DNA of 24,974 bases from the IMG/VR virus record IMGVR_UViG_2778261162_000009, one strand, 5' to 3'. This DNA comes from a virus. Taxonomy: Duplodnaviria > Heunggongvirae > Uroviricota > Caudoviricetes. The notes below the pieces were generated by a model, which saw only the letters and a program-made list of their open reading frames with translations, was not told the origin of the DNA and searched no databases. The position numbers and the translations under genes are program-made. How positions within the stretch are numbered: position 1 is the stretch's first letter; each line of letters opens with the position of its first letter. Shown one piece after another: positions 1 through 13,829 of this stretch.

Positions 1-1002
1 TTACCCTCTATTGTCAAAAGGGTTCAATTCAACAGCAGCCTCTAAATGACCTGGAGCAAAATGCGCATAACGCATAGTCATTTTTATATCGCTATGCCCC
101 AGTATTTTTTGCAACACAAGAATATTTCCGCCCCGCATCATAAAATGACTGGCAAACGTGTGACGTAGCACATGAGTTAATTGCCCATCAGGAAGCTCGA
201 TCTTCGCTCTCTTAATTGCAGCGTCAAAAGCCTCATAACATGGTGAAAATAGCGCTCCTCGTTTTTTAGGAAGCATAGCCTGCAATTGAGGTGAAATCGG
301 TACAGTGCGGTTCTTCTTTCCTTTAGTTTTAACAAATGTGATTCGACCGGGCAGTACTTGAGATTGCTTTAATCCTTCTGCTTCACTCCACCGAGCACCC
401 GTCGCAAGCCCAATACGGACAACAACCCCCAAATCTTTATTCCGTGACTCATCACACGCAATCAGAAGGCGCTCAATCTCATCTACATACAGAAACGCCA
501 GTTCCTTTTCTTCCTCACGAAACTTGCGAATACCAGTCAGGGGGTTTTCACCAGACCACTCCCCAAGGCGCTTCAGTTCGGCAAAAACAGCATGTAGATA
601 TGACTGCTCGCGATTAACGGTTGCTTCACTAAGTTTTTTCTTCCCCTTGGGATTCCATTCTCCTGATAGCCTTCTTTCCCGATAAGTAGCAAACATATTT
701 TTGTCAAACTGAGAAGCAAATGGATCTCCCAGCCTGGAACAAATCGCCTCAAGTTTGACTTTGCGCTCTGCACCAGAGGACAAGGTTTTACCGTACATCT
801 CAAACCAACGAGCAATCAACTCAGAAAGACGAGGACCAGAACCATCTTGAAACTCGTCTCCAACTCTACTATTCATTAAACGGCGCTCATAAGAGAGCGC
901 CTCACTTTTTGTCGCAAACTGTTTACGAATGCGTTTTCCCGATACCCCGTAGGGATAACATTCGCAAAGCCATTTACCTGATGGAATCTTACGAACCGAC
1001 AT
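1..1002 (-). CDS. int: Tyrosine-recombinase integrase (P2 Int family), 333 aa; stop codon sits at the window edge
   Basis: ORF translation has integrase-like C-terminal catalytic region (…HVLRHTFASHF…MRYAHF…); position next to the repressor as in P2/186 prophages. Confidence 0.88.
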   Translation of the reverse strand: MSVRKIPSGKWLCECYPYGVSGKRIRKQFATKSEALSYERRLMNSRVGDEFQDGSGPRLSELIARWFEMYGKTLSSGAERKVKLEAICSRLGDPFASQFDKNMFATYRERRLSGEWNPKGKKKLSEATVNREQSYLHAVFAELKRLGEWSGENPLTGIRKFREEEKELAFLYVDEIERLLIACDESRNKDLGVVVRIGLATGARWSEAEGLKQSQVLPGRITFVKTKGKKNRTVPISPQLQAMLPKKRGALFSPCYEAFDAAIKRAKIELPDGQLTHVLRHTFASHFMMRGGNILVLQKILGHSDIKMTMRYAHFAPGHLEAAVELNPFDNRG

Positions 1003-1007
1003 TTTAG

Positions 1008-1355
1008 TTACTTATCACATAAATCAAATGCAGCCTTAGTGACATCCCCCAGACTCTTTTTTAACCCTGGAGCGGCATCATTATCTAGCCAAAATGGATT
1101 ATTGTTATCTAACGGTAACGCACCAAATGTTTTACCTTTTATTCGAGCCAAACCTGTAAGTGCATATAACTTATTATCGTCAAAATTCATCACATAAGGA
1201 TTACCATCAAGACACTGTAATTGAACCTCATCAGTATTAAATGGCCATACCCCATTGAAACTCTCACGTTCAATAGTTTTAAAAGGCATTGCGACGGCGG
1301 AAAAAGAAAACATAGATAAAAAAGTAACTAATAGTTGAACCTTTTTTGCTTTCAT
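1008..1355 (-). CDS. Small secreted/periplasmic protein, 115 aa, unknown function (cargo gene)
   Basis: N-terminal signal peptide MKAKKVQLLVTFLSMFSFSAVA; two Cys in mature part; AT-rich; co-oriented with repressor operon; SD-like GAGG upstream. Confidence 0.6.
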   Translation of the reverse strand: MKAKKVQLLVTFLSMFSFSAVAMPFKTIERESFNGVWPFNTDEVQLQCLDGNPYVMNFDDNKLYALTGLARIKGKTFGALPLDNNNPFWLDNDAAPGLKKSLGDVTKAAFDLCDK

Positions 1356-1384: not shown

Positions 1385-2035
1385 TTACAAATTAAAAAAC
1401 GCCCTAGAAATGACACCGCCTACCAAAACCCCTACGCAGATAAAGAATATTATTTCTTTTGGATAAAGTCGGATTAATTCTGAAGCACGAAGTCGGACTT
1501 CTGGTAAGGTCGAACTCTCTGTGTGGCTTGATGCCGATTGTTGCTCTAACCACGACAATGCAGACTGTAACTGAGAACGAGTAAGATCGTTTAAACGTCC
1601 TGTACCGAAATTGATATGGCAATACCGCAGAAGTTTTTGTCGAAGTCCACAGTCTTCACTGTTACGTAGTAATAAACTTACAAGAGCCTTACAGGCATCA
1701 TGATCTTTACATCGCTCAAGCATTGCATGCAGAAAACTCTCCGCTGTTTTATATTGATTTACTGTCATATCATCAATACCAGCTACACCAATCTCCGCAT
1801 GTACTTTTTGCCAAATAATAAACGCTTCAGTATTGCTAGCTTCTGCAATAGCAGCAACCAAGCTATTTAGCTCCTTACGCTGAGCCTTAAGCAAAGGGCG
1901 ATCGTCATCATCATTATTCGAAGGGATTGCGATATTGACGGTATGAGAACCATCATATCGCTCTATCTGAATATTCTTTTCGTGAAAATCACGCCCAGCA
2001 ACGCGATTGTTTGAACCGTTTGAGTTGACGGCCAT
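1385..2035 (-). CDS. Tail-anchored membrane protein, 216 aa, unknown function (cargo gene)
   Basis: Soluble N-terminal domain then single C-terminal hydrophobic helix (IIFFICVGVLVGGVISRAFF); strong SD GGGAGGTG 5 nt before ATG; 16 bp after repressor stop. Confidence 0.6.
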   Translation of the reverse strand: MAVNSNGSNNRVAGRDFHEKNIQIERYDGSHTVNIAIPSNNDDDDRPLLKAQRKELNSLVAAIAEASNTEAFIIWQKVHAEIGVAGIDDMTVNQYKTAESFLHAMLERCKDHDACKALVSLLLRNSEDCGLRQKLLRYCHINFGTGRLNDLTRSQLQSALSWLEQQSASSHTESSTLPEVRLRASELIRLYPKEIIFFICVGVLVGGVISRAFFNL

Positions 2036-2050
2036 GTCACCTCCCTACTA

Positions 2051-2455
2051 TCACCTACCCTTAGTTTCGTTATAGTCACGACCAGCGATACGGTTATTAC
2101 CACCAGAAATATTTAACTCACGTCCTGATGGCTGAGTTTCCTTTTCACTGATCGCACCTTTTAAAGCCCCAATCACCGCGTTTTTCACATCTAACGAAGC
2201 TGCTCGAAAGCGAGTAATCAACTCCTGCTCATCATCGTTATAAGTTTCAGGTGAGTGAATTCCCAACACAACATACTGAACATCAAGGCCAAAACGAGAC
2301 AGCGCTGCCAAATACGCAGCATCAGGAAAGCTATCTCCTTTCTCATATCTAAGCTGAGTTAGCTTTTTGACTCCACCAATGTCGCTCATGGCAACTTGAC
2401 TAAGTCCCAATCTTTCCCTTTCCTCACGCAACCGCTGACCAATATCATTTTTCAT
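2051..2455 (-). CDS. XRE-family helix-turn-helix repressor, 134 aa (candidate immunity repressor, CI/C analogue)
   Basis: N-terminal HTH_XRE pattern (IGQRLREERERLGLSQVAMSDIGGVKKLTQLRYEKGDSFPDAAYLAALSRFGLDV); divergent from the rightward early operon. Confidence 0.75.
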   Translation of the reverse strand: MKNDIGQRLREERERLGLSQVAMSDIGGVKKLTQLRYEKGDSFPDAAYLAALSRFGLDVQYVVLGIHSPETYNDDEQELITRFRAASLDVKNAVIGALKGAISEKETQPSGRELNISGGNNRIAGRDYNETKGR

Positions 2456-2530
2456 ACAAAAACCTTGACAGGTATCTTTTTTGATACCAAAATGATTTCA
2501 CGAGCTATTAGATGATCACAATATACCACT
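2456..2530. promoter_or_regulatory. Divergent lysogeny/lytic switch region with TTGACA -35-like hexamer and perfect palindrome GGTATCTTTTTTGATACC (2471-2488)
   Basis: 75-bp gap between divergent repressor and early operon; TTGACA at 2465-2470; 6-bp inverted repeat arms seen directly. Confidence 0.45.
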
Positions 2531-5903: not shown

Positions 5904-6293
5904 ATGATTGACGCTCATGACTTCACAAGATGGGTGCGCACACAGGACACCCGTCTGGCTCCCGTTCTTCAGGGATTATTTGATCTCTACATCCGTGGCC
6001 GTGACAACAGAGCACGCACCACAAAACCAGAGAATGCAGACACCCTTTATTTCACAGTAGACGACTGCTACCGCGTGGACTTCACACCACACGGGCTGGC
6101 GTTGCACTGCCTGACACCACACGGAGGATCACTGCTAGCGTATTACGACTCCCCGGCCTCCGTATTTGCGGCAATGCTGGCGCATTGCACTGCTGGCGGG
6201 TGTGCCTCGCTGAGTGAATACACCGCTGAATTTAACCGCCTTTCTGCCCTCTTCTCGCAGGAGTGGCAGCGCGTGACGGGATACCAGCCATGA
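5904..6293 (+). CDS. Hypothetical early protein, 129 aa
   Basis: ORF immediately upstream of and overlapping gene A start. Confidence 0.5.
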   Translation: MIDAHDFTRWVRTQDTRLAPVLQGLFDLYIRGRDNRARTTKPENADTLYFTVDDCYRVDFTPHGLALHCLTPHGGSLLAYYDSPASVFAAMLAHCTAGGCASLSEYTAEFNRLSALFSQEWQRVTGYQP

Positions 6294-9130
6294 GTGAGTT
6301 TGCATGGAGCTGGAATGAACCACGGCCAGCCATTGATCCGGCCAGATTTACGGAGCACAGGCAGGAAACTGAAACCGACCTGCAACGCGCCATCCGTTAC
6401 TACCTTGAGGCAGACAAAAAGGCTCTGGAAGAACAGGAAGCGAAGGAGGAAGCCTTTTTCGCACAATCCACCGTGGGTAAAAAACTCATGGCATCCCTTG
6501 AGGAAGCCGGACAGCGTGAAAAGCTGGCACAAAGCATCATCAGCAATCGTCAGGCAACAGAACAAGACCCGGTGGCCCGTGCTTTTGCCACACTGAAGGT
6601 GCTTCCCGTTTATCTGCGTGAACCTCTGAGCCACCACCTCTCTTTCCTGCGCAAAAAACAGGAAGCCGATCGCCAGAAAGGCAAAAAGAGCTGGCAGGCT
6701 GAACGCTACGCGCGCGGAACCCTGCGCAAAATATTCGAACGTCTGGACCGCACCGATCACCGCTGGCTGACACCGGGTTATCGCTCCCTTGCCGGACGCG
6801 AACGCCTGGACGATTTGCTTTACCTGCCGCAGCTCAACAAACACCAGATACAGACGCTGGCCACCATGACGGCGGCGATGTTCAGCAGCACCTTCGAAAA
6901 ACTCTGCGATGGCTTTGGCGCGACTGATGGCGAACTGACCATGGATGTAACGCTGAAGGCGTATCAGATGCTGGCCCGCATGGCGTTACACCTGCACGCC
7001 ATGCCTCCACATTATGACGCACTGACAACAGACAAAGACCGGAGGAACGAACCGGACACGGAGCTGCTGCCGGGCGCAATCCTTCGCCTGACCTGTGCGG
7101 AATGGTGGAAACGCAAACTGTGGCTGTTACGTTGCGAGTGGAGAGAAGAACAACTCCGCGCCGCCTGTCTGGTTTCCAGAAAAACATCACCCTATCTGAG
7201 CCAGGACGCGTTAAGCGAGTTTCGCGCACAGCGCGAGAAAACACGCGATTTCCTGAAAAGTTTCATGCTGGAAAATGAAGACGGGTTCACGATTGATCTC
7301 GAGACGGTGTATTACGCGGGAGTAAGTAACCCGGTTCACCGTAAGGCAGAAATGATGGCCACCATGAAGGGACTGGAACTTCTGGCCGAAGCCCGTGGCG
7401 ACAGAGCGGTGTTTCTGACTGTCACCTGCCCGTCAAAATACCACGCAACAACGGAGAACGGTCATCCGAACCCCAAATGGAACGGGGCCACCATGCGCGA
7501 CTCCAGCGATTACCTGGTTAACACGTTTTTTGCGGCGGTCCGCAAAAAACTGAACCGCGACGGTCTGCGCTGGTATGGCATCCGCACGGTGGAGCCTCAC
7601 CATGACGGCACTGTGCACTGGCACATGATGGTCTTTGCACATCCGGACGAGATTGAAACCATCGTGTCCCACGTCTGCGATATTGCCATTCAGGAAGACC
7701 GCCACGAGCTGGGCGATGACATAACTCCGCGTTTTAAGGCGGAGTACGTAGACGGCTCAAAAGGCACACCAACCAGCTACATCGCCACCTACATCGGAAA
7801 GAACCTGGACAGCCGCGCCGTGGATGGCATCGACCCGAAAACGGGCAAGCCACGCGTTGACCACGAAACCGGAAAATCAATGGCCGAGAGCGTGGAACGC
7901 GCCATCGGCTGGGCGCGCCTTCACCGGGTCCGCCAGTTCCAGTTCTTTGGTATCCCCTCCCGTCAGGTGTGGCGTGAACTGCGTCGCCTTGCCAGCCAGA
8001 TGGCACGCAACCCGGAAGGCCCGCAACGGCTGAAGGATGACGCAATGGACGCGGTACTCGCTGCCGCTGATGCCGGATGTTTTGCCACCTACATTGAGAA
8101 ACAGGGTGGCGTACTTGTTCCACGCAAGGACTACCTGATTCGCACCGCCTACGACCTCGCAGATGAGCTGAACGATTACGGCGAACAGAGCGTACAGATT
8201 TACGGGATCTGGTCACCACTCATCGGGGAGTCTTCCCGTGTGTGCACACATCCGGATAACTGGAAGCTGGTAAGACGTAAACCGGAAGCGGAAGACAGCG
8301 CCCGCGAAAATGGTTTTGACCTTCAGGGCGGCCCTGCCGCCCCTTGGACTCGTGGCAATAACTGTCCCCGTGTACAGGAAACGGACAACAACGGGACAGA
8401 ACAGCCGGAAGAACGGCCAGCACCGTGGCCGCAGCTTCCTGACGGCGTTGATGTGGATGAATGGATGCGCTCACTGAAACGGCACGAACGCCGGGCGCTG
8501 ATGCGTTCGCTTCGTGACAAACAGGCAAAAAACAGCAGTGATGAAATGCAGAGCTGGACACAGAGCCGCAAACAGCAGCGGCCTTTGCCTGATAACTACG
8601 AATTACTCGCTAAAGAATGGCGGGAATCTGCCGAATCTCTCGGCCTGCATATCGGTGAACAGCAGATGCAGCACCTGTTACGGGGCGGCAGCCTGTACGT
8701 TGACGGCAGCATCATTGCACCGCAGGGATTTGAAATTGTACGCAAACCGGATACCCGCCCGGACAGCCGAATCACGCAGCTCTGGCAGCGCCTGAGCCGT
8801 AATCACGGCGTAAGCAGCACAGAGATCCGCCATAACCCGGTCGCCAGCTATCTGGAACAACTGGGGGCATCAGACCCCGAAGCCGCCGCACGTCTGGCAT
8901 CCACACTTCAGCAGGACCAGAACACCATGAAAACCCCCGTTACCGTGCTTTCTGACATGCTGCGCGCCATCCGTGACGCAGAGCACGCACAGAGAATCAG
9001 TGAAACCACTGAACGCGCCCACCGCAAAGCAGACCTGCTGCGGGGTAGCCTGACCAGTGGAAACAAAAAACAGACAGAAACGGGACTCACAAATCCCGTA
9101 AATGAGCAAAAAACGCGCCGCGATATATGA
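6290..9130 (+). CDS. A: Replication initiation protein, P2 gpA-like rolling-circle endonuclease, about 946 aa
   Basis: Motif VEPHHDGTVHWHMMVF (HxH metal-binding motif of gpA family) and YIATYIGKN (catalytic Tyr region); start ATG 6290 overlaps upstream stop. Confidence 0.88.
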   Translation: MSEFAWSWNEPRPAIDPARFTEHRQETETDLQRAIRYYLEADKKALEEQEAKEEAFFAQSTVGKKLMASLEEAGQREKLAQSIISNRQATEQDPVARAFATLKVLPVYLREPLSHHLSFLRKKQEADRQKGKKSWQAERYARGTLRKIFERLDRTDHRWLTPGYRSLAGRERLDDLLYLPQLNKHQIQTLATMTAAMFSSTFEKLCDGFGATDGELTMDVTLKAYQMLARMALHLHAMPPHYDALTTDKDRRNEPDTELLPGAILRLTCAEWWKRKLWLLRCEWREEQLRAACLVSRKTSPYLSQDALSEFRAQREKTRDFLKSFMLENEDGFTIDLETVYYAGVSNPVHRKAEMMATMKGLELLAEARGDRAVFLTVTCPSKYHATTENGHPNPKWNGATMRDSSDYLVNTFFAAVRKKLNRDGLRWYGIRTVEPHHDGTVHWHMMVFAHPDEIETIVSHVCDIAIQEDRHELGDDITPRFKAEYVDGSKGTPTSYIATYIGKNLDSRAVDGIDPKTGKPRVDHETGKSMAESVERAIGWARLHRVRQFQFFGIPSRQVWRELRRLASQMARNPEGPQRLKDDAMDAVLAAADAGCFATYIEKQGGVLVPRKDYLIRTAYDLADELNDYGEQSVQIYGIWSPLIGESSRVCTHPDNWKLVRRKPEAEDSARENGFDLQGGPAAPWTRGNNCPRVQETDNNGTEQPEERPAPWPQLPDGVDVDEWMRSLKRHERRALMRSLRDKQAKNSSDEMQSWTQSRKQQRPLPDNYELLAKEWRESAESLGLHIGEQQMQHLLRGGSLYVDGSIIAPQGFEIVRKPDTRPDSRITQLWQRLSRNHGVSSTEIRHNPVASYLEQLGASDPEAAARLASTLQQDQNTMKTPVTVLSDMLRAIRDAEHAQRISETTERAHRKADLLRGSLTSGNKKQTETGLTNPVNEQKTRRDI

Positions 9131-9206: not shown

Positions 9207-10166
9207 ATGAAAATTTGTATCGACGACGGCTCCACCAACATCAAGCTGGCATGGACTGAGAACGGCAAACGCCGCAACGCCATCAGCCCGAACAGCTTCA
9301 AGTCGGAATGGTCTGCGCCGTTCGGTGGCACGCAGCCCGCGAACTACATGCTTGATGGCGTGCGCTATGGCTTTGATCCGGTCAGCGATCGCTTTGTCCA
9401 GACGACCGACACGCAATACCAGTACAGCGATGTGAATGTCATTGCCATTCATCACGCGCTGGTCAAATCAGGCATCACGCCACAGGAGGTGGATGTGGTT
9501 GTCACCCTGCCACTGAGCGAGTATTTCGACACAAACGCACAGCCGGACATGGCCAACATCAGCCGCAAAAAAGCGAACGTTATGCGCCCGGTGGAGTACC
9601 AGAACGGCGAAGCATTCACTATCCGTAACGTACGGGTTATGCCTGAATCCATTCCGGCTGGCTTTAAGGCACTGGCTGACATGAGTCCGTTTGAATCCCT
9701 GCTGATTGTGGATTTGGGCGGAACCACGCTGGATGTGGCAAAGGTTCAGGGGCAACTGGCAGGTATTAGCCAGGTGTTTTGCGATCCACACGTAGGCGTT
9801 TCTCTGATGGCCGATGCCGTACTGTCGGTGATGGCCACTAACGGTATGCGTACCAGTCACCACATCGCCAATACCATTATCGAACATCGCCATGATGAAG
9901 CCTGGCTGCGCCAGCACATCCACAATGACGCGCATTACGCCAGCCTGATGGCGGTTATTCGTGAAAAGGAAGAAACACTGAAACAACGCGTGATCCGCGC
10001 GCTGGCGGTTTTTTCGGGTTACGGGCGGGTGATGGTTGTCGGTGGCGGGGCGGAGATTGTGGCACCCGCTATCCGCGAAGCCTGCGGAGTTAATGCGACT
10101 TTCATCGCGGACGGGGTGCCACAGTTTGCTCTGGTTAATGGGCTGTACGCAATGGACAAGGAGTAA
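9207..10166 (+). CDS. parM: ParM/StbA-like actin-type ATPase, 319 aa
   Basis: Strong resemblance to plasmid R1 ParM from memory: MKICIDDGSTNIKLAW, SPNSF, YSDVNV…HHAL, VMPESIPAG, DLGGTTLD, VGGGAE, LVNG. Confidence 0.85.
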   Translation: MKICIDDGSTNIKLAWTENGKRRNAISPNSFKSEWSAPFGGTQPANYMLDGVRYGFDPVSDRFVQTTDTQYQYSDVNVIAIHHALVKSGITPQEVDVVVTLPLSEYFDTNAQPDMANISRKKANVMRPVEYQNGEAFTIRNVRVMPESIPAGFKALADMSPFESLLIVDLGGTTLDVAKVQGQLAGISQVFCDPHVGVSLMADAVLSVMATNGMRTSHHIANTIIEHRHDEAWLRQHIHNDAHYASLMAVIREKEETLKQRVIRALAVFSGYGRVMVVGGGAEIVAPAIREACGVNATFIADGVPQFALVNGLYAMDKE

Positions 10167-10170
10167 ACCA

Positions 10171-10485
10171 ATGACGACACCAACCAGACGGATAAGTTTC
10201 TATCTGAAGCCAGCTGCAGTCAAGAGTGAACGGGAAGCGTGTAATTATCTCGACAGCCTGCCAGCCTCCGAACGCAGCCGCGCGCAACGCGCGGCATTTC
10301 TGGCTGGACTGGCACTCATTAAAAACGATCCTGCCTTTGCTTACTGGCTGGCTGAATGGTCAGAGGGGGAAAATATGCCTGCCAACAATCACATATGGGG
10401 CTGGCATAACAGCGAGCCTGCTGGTTGCAAAAATCAGAATATAAGTCAAATAAAAAAGAATATTCAGGAATTTTTTCCTGAATGA
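10171..10485 (+). CDS. parR: ParR/StbB-like partition adaptor, about 104 aa
   Basis: RRISFYLKP…LDSLPASERSRAQRAAFLAGLAL matches ParR N-terminal RHH region; AGGAG SD; directly downstream of parM. Confidence 0.65.
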   Translation: MTTPTRRISFYLKPAAVKSEREACNYLDSLPASERSRAQRAAFLAGLALIKNDPAFAYWLAEWSEGENMPANNHIWGWHNSEPAGCKNQNISQIKKNIQEFFPE

Positions 10486-10678: not shown

Positions 10679-10807
10679 CCATAATCACCTCCTTACTGAG
10701 AATGATTTTTACCTTGATTATCTGCCTGGATTGACTAGAATCACAGTTGTACATGCAAAACATCAAGGTGATGATATTTCTCAGACTATCATTTCTTTGT
10801 GTTGAAA

Positions 10808-10837
10808 AGCCCCTGACGGTTGGCCCCGTCAGGGGCT
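10808..10837. terminator. Intrinsic terminator after the antitoxin gene (AGCCCCTGACGG…CCGTCAGGGGCT)
   Basis: 12-bp perfect stem; U-rich tract follows on minus strand. Confidence 0.6.
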
Positions 10838-10843
10838 TAATAT

Positions 10844-11161
10844 TTATGCAACCTGACAGGAATGTTCTGCCGTCGCAGTAACAACCCCACCGGAATACCC
10901 AAACTTAAAATCCCACCCCAGGATGTTTAGCATGATAAACAGTCGATCAATGGTATGATTATCTAACTTACCATTAATGATTTCGCTTACTCTTGGTTGG
11001 GTAGTTTCCAGCAATTCAGCAGCTTCTCGCTGGGTAAGACCGCGCTCCTGAATCATTTTTCGGATAATAACCATTAATTGGGCCCGGATGTGTTTATCAC
11101 TAGCTTCATTTACAGAGCTACTTGATGACGCATAAGGGTTTTTGACTACGACGAATTCCAT
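10844..11161 (-). CDS. HigA-like XRE-HTH antitoxin, 105 aa
   Basis: HTH pattern GLTQREAAELLETTQPRVSEIINGKL; downstream of Gp49-family toxin gene. Confidence 0.7.
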   Translation of the reverse strand: MEFVVVKNPYASSSSSVNEASDKHIRAQLMVIIRKMIQERGLTQREAAELLETTQPRVSEIINGKLDNHTIDRLFIMLNILGWDFKFGYSGGVVTATAEHSCQVA

Positions 11162-11231
11162 AACTCTCCAGCCTTAATCAGCGATGTTGCTGACATTGAT
11201 TATGTTATATCAGATTTGAGATACCTGCAAG

Positions 11232-11633
11232 CTATCTTAAGCCATTTTTACGACGATACTCCACTAATTGTTTGTATCTTGCGGCAGCTGTCTCATATTC
11301 TTTTTTTGACACACCATTTGTCTTTTTCTTAAATGTATGAAGTATGTAAACAGACTCCGCAAATTTCGCAACGTAAATCATACGATAAGAATCACTACTC
11401 TTGATGGTTAATTGCATTGCGTAGCGACCAATCGTTTCCCGCATTGATTTTTTTTGAGCAGGTGGAACCCCCAAGGCATCATCACCATCCACTGGAAAAT
11501 CGAAACTGTCGAAAGAATGAGGACAATCGCTCTGCAGTGCAACAAGCTCAAAATTTATCCTTTCTCGAACAGCTTCAGGATAACTATCAATTTGTTTCTG
11601 AATTTTATCATTCCAATATGTGATGTCTTTCAC
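11232..11633 (-). CDS. HigB/RelE-superfamily toxin of the Gp49-like family, 133 aa
   Basis: C-terminal signature RMIYVAKFAESVYILHTFKKKTNGVSKKEYETAAARYKQL; GTG start with GAGAGG SD; toxin-first order typical of HigBA. Confidence 0.65.
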   Translation of the reverse strand: MKDITYWNDKIQKQIDSYPEAVRERINFELVALQSDCPHSFDSFDFPVDGDDALGVPPAQKKSMRETIGRYAMQLTIKSSDSYRMIYVAKFAESVYILHTFKKKTNGVSKKEYETAAARYKQLVEYRRKNGLR

Positions 11634-12243
11634 TCAGAACCTCTCACCAACGTAACCGAACGAAATTATACAAAGATCTTTTTTCGCTTAAATACATCCA
11701 CTGAACGTTGATTTTAATGCAAGATTGTGCACAAATTTGCACAATTTTTTTGAACGACTTTTTGCCCTTCCGGCCCGCGTGGCGGCTGGATCCGCCAAGG
11801 ATCCGTGCGTGCACAAAAAAACGCGTTTTTTCTGCGCGCAGGTGACGGGGGAACAGCCCGCGTTTCAGGGGGTAAATAGCATCCCCTGAACGATGTCGCA
11901 GCGACACGACAGAATGGCTGTATTTCTCACGCTGAGCGTGAAAAAGACGTGAGGGTTTTTGATTTGATGGGGTGGCAGATAAGGCCGTCAAAATCGCACT
12001 GAGGCGGCGAGAACATGCAGTCAGCGCGATGGGATTGCGTAAGAGCCTGACCGTCGATGATGGCAATAAGCTGGAAGGCGTCGTGAAATTATCTGATTGA
12101 TACAGGAGCTGGAGAGTCGGGGCATAAATTTTTTATGCCCCGGCGAAGCAGCAGACAAGCGAAGCGCGTCAGTGATACGGCACCTTGCCGACCATACTTC
12201 ATAAGTGCAAAATACGAGCAAAGAAATCAATGGAGGCTGTCTT

Positions 12244-12768
12244 ATGGTCATTAATTACAAGCAGTTAAGAGAAAAACGGGAGCAGGTAAAGGAGAGCTTT
12301 CGCCGCAATGAAGATCTGACCCCGCTTGTACGCCTTGCCCAGGGCATTGTTGATGCTTATGAAATCTCGCTGGAGCTGCCATCACAGACCTGGACAGATA
12401 GCGATGGTAATCGCCAGCATTACGTTTCATGCGGACTGGAAGCAGCCGAAGGATTTCGCAGAATGCCTTTATCCCAGATCCCTGCCGCTACCCCCAAAGC
12501 ACGGGGCAGCAATGATGAGCGAAAACTGACTTTTAGTATTGAAACGGTGGTTGACGACACACCTGGCGAAGTCGCGTTCGTGCACACTCCTGTTTCGATC
12601 GCAATGTATAACGATGAAATACAGGTTCGCGTTAATAATAATATCGTGCCACTTAAAGAAGGTAATTCACCCTACACCACCGTTTGTGAAGCCATTCAAT
12701 ATTACGTTCTCTCTGAAATTGATAATCTCAAGCCTGACGGCACCCAGAAAATGGTTCAACTCTGGTAA
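12244..12768 (+). CDS. Orphan hypothetical protein, 174 aa (cargo gene between cos region and portal gene)
   Basis: ATG 12244 with GGAGG 7 nt upstream; convergent with Q; no recognisable domain. Confidence 0.6.
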   Translation: MVINYKQLREKREQVKESFRRNEDLTPLVRLAQGIVDAYEISLELPSQTWTDSDGNRQHYVSCGLEAAEGFRRMPLSQIPAATPKARGSNDERKLTFSIETVVDDTPGEVAFVHTPVSIAMYNDEIQVRVNNNIVPLKEGNSPYTTVCEAIQYYVLSEIDNLKPDGTQKMVQLW

Positions 12769-12773
12769 AAAGG

Positions 12774-12800
12774 ACAGCCCCATCACGGGGCTGTTTTTTC
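12774..12800 (+). terminator. Intrinsic terminator (ACAGCCCC-atcac-GGGGCTGT then TTTTTT), overlapping Q stop
   Basis: 8-bp stem and T6 tract seen directly. Confidence 0.6.
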
Positions 12801-13829
12801 ATCAAGAAGAGCATAAGAGTTAAAACGGATCACCTCTTCGCCAAGCCAGTCATTGATGTGCTTCATGGCCTCCATAACGGGCATCAGCTCGTTAATTGCG
12901 TAAACCCGCGCGGCCTTCTCCACATCACCAAACGCACTTTTTTCACCCGGCATCGCCCCCATCAGTTGCGGCGGAACGCGGTGCGCAGCCAGCACATCAT
13001 CACGGGATGCCGCCTTAACATTCATGAACTCATCCTTTGCAGTGATCTGCTGGAACGGCAAAATTTGCACACCTTCTTTGCCCCCGTTGGGCGCATGAAT
13101 GAGCACATTCTTAAACGCACCACCACCACGTGCACCCTGTAGCGTTTCTTTCAGGGAGTCCATGCTTTCGCGGTTTACCTGCGCTGCACCGATGTAGATG
13201 ATGCACCCGGCGTGGGATCCGTTGTCGTAATACAGTTTTCTGAACATGTCCGCCGAATGAGACAGGCTGGCCGAGAGTAATGCGCCGAGATATTCCGGCA
13301 TGCCGTAGATTTCCTGGTTAATATCCGGATTCATCAGGTGGCACACTTTGCCAGGGCGAAACTGGAACGCGTCCTTGCCATCCTGCACATACCACCATGA
13401 TTCAAGATCGCTTCCGCGTCGCATGTATTTCGCCAGGGCGTGCCGTAATTTAAGCGGTTCACCGAGCATATTGCTTCGAAGCTCAAGGAATGCGTTACCG
13501 AACACAAACCAGTCCAGCGCCAGCGCCGAGAAATCCTGCCGGGAAAGCAGCGGGTGCGGAATATAGCAACCGAGCAATACATTGCGCTTAAAGTAAAGCG
13601 CAGACTGATGCCAGGACGTTTGCCGGGCAGCTCTTGCCAGACCGTACCAGTCCACCGGGGTTTCATACCACCGCCCGTTATCAGCACAGTACATATTATC
13701 CAGCAGGTCATGCCCGGTCAGGCGATAAGGACCATCAAATGTGAATGCACTGAGCGACGATTCTTTCCTGAGCGCATCAGCGAGATCAATGCGTGAACTC
13801 ATGCGCACTTTTTTATTTTTTCTGCTCAT
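12783..13829 (-). CDS. Q: Portal protein, P2 gpQ-like, 348 aa
   Basis: Size and sequence resemblance to P2 gpQ; ATGA overlap with terminase gene; conserved synteny. Confidence 0.88.
   Translation of the reverse strand: MSRKNKKVRMSSRIDLADALRKESSLSAFTFDGPYRLTGHDLLDNMYCADNGRWYETPVDWYGLARAARQTSWHQSALYFKRNVLLGCYIPHPLLSRQDFSALALDWFVFGNAFLELRSNMLGEPLKLRHALAKYMRRGSDLESWWYVQDGKDAFQFRPGKVCHLMNPDINQEIYGMPEYLGALLSASLSHSADMFRKLYYDNGSHAGCIIYIGAAQVNRESMDSLKETLQGARGGGAFKNVLIHAPNGGKEGVQILPFQQITAKDEFMNVKAASRDDVLAAHRVPPQLMGAMPGEKSAFGDVEKAARVYAINELMPVMEAMKHINDWLGEEVIRFNSYALLDEKTAP

Follow-up and report, generated by a model that had tools for sequence, protein, structure and literature searches.

The DNA analyzed here, called the window throughout, is the whole 24,974-nucleotide stretch of the viral record IMGVR_UViG_2778261162_000009, and is, judged from its sequence, a P88-like prophage (Xuanwuvirus, Peduoviridae) of Escherichia coli. 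Between its cos region and its portal gene (the gpQ homologue, here Q), it carries a plus-strand gene for a 174-amino-acid (aa) protein that converges on the portal gene. The open reading frame (ORF) extends from an ATG at 12244 to a TAA at 12766-12768 and, as an earlier note on this DNA had read from the letters, has a good ribosome-binding site (RBS), with the Shine-Dalgarno motif GGAGG 7 nt before the ATG. A longer, 187-aa reading from GTG-12205 was rejected, as all homologues start with M-[VT]-[IV]-[NT]-Y at ATG 12244. The near-identical RefSeq copy of the protein is WP_000236495.1, and the gene in E. coli JJ1887 shows one synonymous difference. Against the O111 allele, the ratio of non-synonymous to synonymous substitution (dN/dS) is 0.08 (22 synonymous and 7 non-synonymous differences). 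The ORF is a real protein-coding gene under purifying selection, because in addition to this ratio there are full-length homologues down to ~20% identity with conserved motifs, a match to the profile phrog_5091 (E = 1.4e-67, 227.5 bits, residues 1-168 on profile positions 1-164 of 164), a strong RBS and a confident AlphaFold2 model. Database annotation goes no further than "hypothetical protein", which would suit a chance ORF without a protein product; set against the low dN/dS, the conserved homologues, the profile match, the RBS and the fold prediction, the probability of a chance ORF is negligible.

The gene lies in a cassette of 635 bp (12173-12807) that holds a promoter-like region, the RBS, the gene, a terminator and a new tail for the portal gene. 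In phage P88, the same place is taken by 21 bp, with homology running up to 12172 and resuming at 12808 (BLAST and alignment). The cassette is lower in GC (46.9%) than the portal gene (52.8%) and the terminase gene (54.1%). The cassette is thus present in some and absent from other collinear relatives, has its own terminator and differs in base composition, and these are among the marks of a moron in the sense of Hendrix and colleagues. We conclude with high confidence that 12173-12807 is an autonomous single-gene moron cassette in the slot between cosL and Q. Its exact limits, including the rewritten portal tail, are new here.

A survey of 5426 complete E. coli genomes, of which 1146 have the cos-portal junction, gave the distribution of the cassette. 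It is present in 397 of the junction-bearing genomes (397/5426, or ~7%, of complete E. coli), always on the chromosome and always beside the portal gene. An even sample of the remaining ~750 genomes shows an empty allele of ~1027 bp in nearly all other junctions, and the cassette is absent from ~65% of the E. coli prophages with the same junction. Among related phage records, 4 of 16 carry it, and P88 and P2 do not; in the P2 record, cosL (1-19) is followed by the terminator tQ (160-181) and then by Q (187-1221), in agreement with the statement of the earlier note that nothing lies between cos and Q in P2. That note had proposed a presence/absence survey of this kind and had named as the alternative a conserved backbone or structural gene that P2-like phages keep next to Q. 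Diverged homologues do occupy this position in several P2-like lineages, which is what a backbone gene would show; yet the gene is missing from P2, from P88, from 12 of the 16 related phage records and from ~65% of the E. coli junctions, its family appears in just 5 of 50,697 phage records (tblastn, queried with three separate members), and it has no known structural role, so that a backbone gene is very improbable. The description of the gene as a single-gene insert and a classic moron is instead upheld by the 635 bp that stand against 21 bp in P88, by the many junctions without the cassette, and by its lower GC content, own terminator and phiCTX-like layout (see below). Separately, two records filed as plasmids, NZ_MK439959.1 and CP054248.1 (228 kb and 542 kb), encode the identical 174-aa protein. 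These copies may be P88-like elements kept as or inserted into plasmids, or assembly artefacts.

The cargo on the other side of cos, toward gpA, differs among carriers of the cassette: it is a toxin-antitoxin (TA) pair in the window, a hypothetical protein plus a DUF4760 protein in the sequence type (ST) 131 strain JJ1887, a small ORF in O111, and other genes in vB_EcoM-569R5. Because of these differences, and because the cassette itself is either present or absent, the cassette is an independent module. A tie to the adjacent HigB-like TA pair was rejected, as the gpA side varies independently (JJ1887, O111 and 569R5), and so was membership in a type II TA system, since no small co-oriented neighbour is conserved and the HigB-like/helix-turn-helix (HTH) pair is located across cos on the other strand. 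In JJ1887, the gpA-cos side (L036, 4968-6347) encodes a 280-aa hypothetical protein with the DUF4760 protein, which appears as a frequent arrangement among the entries of Table S5A in Rousset 2022 (PMC9122126).

The terminator of the cassette, directly 3′ of the stop codon of the 174-aa gene, consists of the arm AAGGACAGCCCC, the loop ATCAC and the arm GGGGCTGTTTTTT (12769-12799). The hairpin folds at −21.5 kcal/mol (z = −5.2), none of 200 shuffled sequences folds as well, and the consensus scan flags it too. The portal stop codon (12783-12785, minus strand) sits inside the hairpin loop, confirming that the gene has its own terminator and that this terminator overlaps the end of Q, so that the 3′ arm and the T-run carry the final codons of the portal gene. 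Indeed, in the alignment, the window portal ends in ...LLDEKTAP* and the P88 portal in ...LLDTQPTS*, both proteins being 348 aa long; the 3′ arm and loop of the terminator supply the last five codons (EKTAP*) and the stop, replacing TQPTS*. The equivalent of the P88 portal stop is found at 12169-12171, where TCA is still present at the left edge of the cassette (Table 1). On the plus strand just before the cassette, a second hairpin, GGGGCAT-AAATTTTTT-ATGCCCC (12119-12141), is flanked by no T-run. Cassette-free phages retain it, ~27 nt beyond their portal stop, and it may be an ancestral end-of-Q signal or a packaging element.

Table 1. Features of the window, with the cassette and its surroundings in order of position
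Feature	Position	Strand	Basis or remark
Integrase	1-1002		
gpA	6263-9130		
ParM and ParR	9207-10485	+	
Gp49/HigB-like toxin and HTH antitoxin	10844-11633	-	
Approximate cos cleavage region	11745..11790	.	Ends of linear P884B11 record map to 11762/11763
Conserved cos-proximal block	11763..12172	.	94% identical to P88 and P884B11; in 16/16 related phage records
Vestigial portal stop, TCA on + strand	12169..12171	-	Alignment to empty P88 junction
Cassette	12173-12807	+	BLAST break points against P88
Putative sigma-70 promoter, TTGCCG-17 nt-CAAAAT	12185..12213	+	8/12 consensus positions, weak; read from sequence
Shine-Dalgarno, GGAGG	12232..12236	+	7 nt upstream of ATG 12244; read from sequence
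174-aa coding sequence, 19.8 kDa, pI 5.0	12244..12768	+	ORF, homologue and profile comparisons
Bidirectional intrinsic terminator hairpin	12769..12799	.	A-run before, T-run after; folding and consensus scan
Portal gene (gpQ homologue, 348 aa)	12783..13829	-	Pfam Phage_portal, E = 8e-18
Portal, terminase, scaffold, capsid and later genes	from 12783		

The arrangement has a close precedent in the ctx moron of phiCTX (a Pseudomonas phage; Citexvirus, Peduoviridae), where the order is the same: cosL, a few hundred bp, a promoter, one plus-strand cargo gene, one or more terminators, and a convergent Q. The phiCTX record gives cosL at 1-21, the promoter at 281-308, ctx at 362-1222 (+), terminators at 1267-1329 and Q at 1417-2469 (-). 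The cargo differs, as ctx encodes an unrelated secreted pore-forming toxin, whereas the 174-aa protein is small, cytoplasmic and α/β, with no known domain; furthermore, in the window it is the cassette terminator that overlaps and rewrites the end of Q. The cosL-Q position has long been proposed as a site for foreign genes, as described in PMC5694545, which cites Dodd & Egan 1996 and Nakayama 1999. By the same description, foreign DNA also lies between cos and the terminator or portal end in the retrons Ec67 and Ec86 (186-related prophages) and in ORF1-4 of the Ralstonia phage RSY1, with different cargo, namely reverse transcriptase or Vgr-like genes (PMC5694545). The slot is consequently less unusual than the earlier note implied, and WP_000236495 is already listed as "hypothetical" in Table S5A of Rousset 2022 (PMC9122126). 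This kind of feature is already known, and the gene is already catalogued.

The identity of layout with phiCTX raises the reading that the 174-aa protein, like ctx, is directed at the host, as a lysogenic-conversion or fitness factor that alters the physiology, stress tolerance or virulence of the lysogen. The cassette is indeed common in the clinically prominent lineages ST131, O55:H7 and O111:H8, and in the phage CharmingMan the homologue adjoins morons annotated as tellurite-resistance and TciB-like genes. This lineage distribution may, however, reflect clonal spread of one prophage; the absence of a signal peptide or membrane segment makes the protein cytoplasmic, it has no toxin or enzyme domain, and members of its family occur solely in prophages and phages of many Enterobacterales, none of them linked to a virulence locus. 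A host-directed role is rather improbable.

The cassette also falls within the gpA-gpQ interval of P2-like phages, a documented defence hotspot (PMC9122126; PMC9519451; PMC13586616), since the gene lies between gpA (6263-9130) and the portal gene (12783-13829). It resembles the known cargo of this hotspot in P2-like phages (old, tin, retrons, PARIS-type and PD systems; PMC9122126, PMC9519451) in being within the interval, low in GC and present or absent. It differs from old and tin of P2, which are on the gpA side of cos, in its location on the Q side.

As for expression, the hexamers and spacing of the putative sigma-70 promoter are kept upstream of the Salmonella orthologue (TTGTCT-17-CAAAAT), and the spacer sequence has diverged. 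Judged by these upstream signals, a weak sigma-70 promoter of its own probably drives the gene, without dependence on the late operon; with this predicted mode of transcription, the lysogen would probably contain the protein. For the Ogr-type late-promoter dyad TGT-N12-ACA, 6 matches were counted versus 6.3 expected, with none in the cassette or in the terminase-scaffold intergenic region, and for these reasons its pattern is uninformative here.

The AlphaFold2 model, built from a 54-sequence alignment, has a mean predicted local distance difference score (pLDDT) of 80.2 and a predicted template-modelling score (pTM) of 0.70. It shows two N-terminal helices (residues 5-22 and 26-42), an eight-strand antiparallel meander sheet, a disordered loop (74-92) and a C-terminal helix (145-159). 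With no evident signal peptide or transmembrane segment, the product is predicted to be a small acidic soluble α/β protein. The conserved residues are mostly aromatic or hydrophobic, together with a conserved acidic hairpin tip, TV-x-DD-x-P-x-G, and no recognizable catalytic constellation is found among them. Because of this pattern, we expect a binding protein, with another macromolecule or a small ligand as its target, and not an enzyme. In agreement with the earlier note, which recognized no domain, Pfam, NCBIfam and PADLOC have no match for the 174-aa protein and nothing consistent among 54 family members. A profile search against PDB sequences returned only noise at E > 0.1, Foldseek found nothing at E < 0.001 against PDB (first model) or BFVD (second model), and a literature search for the accessions and the PHROG identifier found no papers. 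The remote-homology and structure-prediction checks that the note had suggested have thus delivered a family and a model, and no confident match to a known fold or domain. An α/β sandwich of the Mog1/PsbP-like or DUF1795 (Eag chaperone) type was considered for comparison, with no clear-cut superposition.

The same note had called the gene an orphan, and this does not hold: beyond the phrog_5091 match, an exhaustive profile search of 1.8 billion representatives yields at least 88 family clusters at 50% identity, most of them 155-185 aa long and matching end to end. A word-indexed search reaches only Enterobacteriaceae relatives, down to 46% identity, whereas full-length homologues extend to ~20-30% identity with the motifs AY-x-x-SL-x-LP-x-x-TW-x-D-x-x-G-x-x-x-x-YV, F-x-I-x-TV-x-DD-x-P-x-GG and VC-x-x-IK conserved. 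An alignment of a distant subgroup, used as the query, found 2 genome loci and 23 viral contigs. The match to PHROG 5091 is full length, but this PHROG has no functional annotation, so membership does not explain the mechanism. In view of its near absence from sequenced phage isolates (the five records above), the family is a temperate-phage gene met mostly in prophages.

Within P2-like prophages, very diverged members persist next to Q. In Salmonella (63% identity) and Morganella (23% identity), the member adjoins the portal gene and is convergent with it, as is homologue P0077 (22% identity), whose prophage has the order gpA, EcoRII/Dcm, family gene, portal. In E. coli DG343-1, the portal-adjoining slot holds a 20%-identical member, likewise convergent with the portal gene (hhalign 98.8%, E = 1e-16), an allele present in 31 genomes. 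The DG343-1 member (L040:3205-3915) is annotated as 236 aa, with the conserved cos-proximal small ORF read in as its N-terminus, and residues 63-230 correspond to the family; because an internal Met aligns with the family N-terminus, this annotation probably has an over-extended start. The P2-like prophage of Trabulsiella guamensis has the family gene directly after gpA, followed by a HicB-containing (HicAB) pair and a Phd/Fic(Doc) pair, giving three successive accessory modules between gpA and the portal gene (L003, 6738-8053). The recognition of this broad family, and of the persistence of very diverged members in place beside Q, is new here.

In other temperate phages, the family sits at the boundaries of late modules, usually with its own terminator. 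Lambdoid phages have the gene between the Q antiterminator and the holin, as does the isolated phage CharmingMan, beside other morons; HK97-like layouts have it directly upstream of HNH-TerS-TerL-portal, elsewhere it is upstream of TerS or TerL, and in a myovirus with a DUF3383 sheath it lies between the tail chaperone and the tape measure. Of 27 loci drawn from different phage types, 20 have a terminator-like hairpin and T-run after the family gene, compared with 30% for 259 control ORFs taken from these loci. The family contexts share no conserved partner gene, and the idea of a small partner ORF was rejected.

The repeated placement near packaging genes or genome ends in unrelated phage types could mean that the protein is an accessory to the phage's own late functions, in packaging at cos or in resisting satellites that hijack capsid or terminase (P4-like elements and phage-inducible chromosomal islands). 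The gene is dispensable, however, as P88, P2 and ~65% of P88-like prophages are without it; members of the family also occur between the Q antiterminator and the holin and inside the tail module, and genome ends and module boundaries are general sites for morons. We consider this reading improbable, slightly more so than a host-directed role.

The family contexts bear as well on a counter-defence role, in which the protein would be a small binder or sponge that neutralizes the immunity of the host or of a rival element during infection by, or induction of, the carrier phage. The protein is small, acidic (pI 5.0), non-enzymatic in appearance and without known homologues; the gene is within ~0.5 kb of the genome end; strongly diverged members (20-63% identity) occupy the same portal-adjoining slot in several P2-like lineages, which suggests fast, conflict-driven evolution; and in other phages the family gene is embedded in lytic (late) transcription units. 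Anti-defence genes are, on the other hand, normally early, so that positions in late operons or convergent to them are unusual, and a 2026 survey, in which known types alone were detectable, found very few anti-defence genes in P2-like phages (two types, 28 elements; PMC13586616). Counter-defence is unlikely, and still the most probable of these alternatives.

Taking the locus as a whole, we favour, tentatively and at a little under even chances, an autonomous moron in the cosL-Q slot whose most likely role is that of a conflict factor. According to this proposal, the cassette's weak promoter would allow transcription apart from the late operon, and the protein would then be present in the lysogen. 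The cassette terminator now also ends the convergent portal gene and encodes its last five residues. The protein itself would be a conflict factor encoded by the prophage and shielding its lysogen from other phages, in a mode like that of P2 Tin or of a superinfection-exclusion protein that poisons a protein of the competitor. The more specific version, a soluble binder expressed in the lysogen that would exclude other phages through defence by stoichiometric binding, is suggested by location and family behaviour and is possible, if somewhat less probable than the proposal as a whole. Small non-enzymatic prophage exclusion proteins such as P2 Tin serve here as a working analogy only: they and the 174-aa protein are alike in being single, small and soluble, encoded in the variable part of a P2-like prophage and lacking an evident enzymatic domain, and no sequence or fold relationship of the 174-aa protein to Tin-type proteins was found. 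A defence role is proposed because the gene lies in the cargo region between gpA and gpQ and because family members turn up repeatedly at moron positions, in many temperate phages. The earlier note's suggestion of a defence or anti-defence factor accordingly stays plausible from context, and no homology, fold or partner gene of the 174-aa protein was found to favour it.

Several observations weigh against a defence role in the lysogen. PADLOC 2.0 gives 0 matches for the protein and no model that is consistent across the 54 family members, so no known defence model is matched, and WP_000236495, catalogued as hypothetical by Rousset 2022, is absent from the table of tested systems in that study (PMC9122126). 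The putative promoter, at 8 of 12 positions, is too weak to pass the consensus scan. The family gene is co-directional within late operons in several other phages; such members would be produced late in the lytic cycle as well, and this, taken alone, does not agree with protection of the lysogen. To be small, acidic and devoid of homologues is just as typical of anti-defence factors. Furthermore, the slot at the P88-like junction is essentially two-state, either empty or occupied by the 174-aa gene, as opposed to the rapid swapping of many systems or alleles in defence hotspots such as that of P2-like phages.

At the level of the family, PHROG 5091 might be an unrecognized and widespread single-protein conflict module of temperate Enterobacterales phages, with a fold without detectable relatives, acting in phage-phage or phage-host conflict, either in defence or, as a binder or sponge, in counter-defence, held preferentially at the genome end beside the packaging genes and diverging fast in place; we offer this more guardedly than the proposal for the cassette. 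If a defence or counter-defence role is true, the gene would represent a new single-gene family without known fold relatives in ~7% of complete E. coli genomes, and the Q-proximal side of cos in P2-like phages would be a cargo slot separate from the much-studied gpA side. At present, its value is that of a clean, testable 635-bp candidate with natural gene-plus phages, such as the P88-like PhiR44_2 and vB_EcoM-569R5, and natural gene-minus ones, and nothing known is overturned.

The approximate position of cos was taken from the record of the Xuanwuvirus P884B11, whose last 45 bases align to 11718-11762 and whose first 405 bases align to 11763-12172, which puts cos approximately 480 bp upstream of the 174-aa gene. 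The P2/186-type 19-nt cos core has no match with three or fewer mismatches in the window, and the placement rests on these record termini. The conserved cos-proximal block holds the hairpin at 12119-12141 and a small plus-strand ORF of 42 codons (11972-12100), the equivalent of P88 gp22. An Rfam scan of 10.4-13 kb gave two sub-threshold chance matches only; one, to His_leader at 10801-10938 (-), reaches 28.6 bits where the gathering score is 49 (E = 0.056), overlaps the antitoxin gene at its end and is most likely due to chance. The HigB-like/HTH pair at 10844-11633 (-), the variable gpA-side cargo of this prophage, is toxin-first: a Gp49/HigB-like protein of 133 aa (Pfam Gp49, E = 3e-13) precedes an HTH_37/XRE antitoxin-like protein of 105 aa. 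Directly after gpA, the partition pair at 9207-10485 (+) comprises ParM (StbA_N/ParM_N) and a ParR-like protein (Plasmid_stab_B), and hints at a plasmid-like maintenance option; Rousset 2022 reports a ParM/ParR pair in about a quarter of P2-like phages (PMC9122126). Finally, a perfect palindrome, TGTGCACAAATTTGCACA (11726-11743), lies ~20 bp from the inferred genome end and recurs at the right end of the P884B11 record; it could serve the TA pair as an operator, or be an accessory site for terminase or cos.

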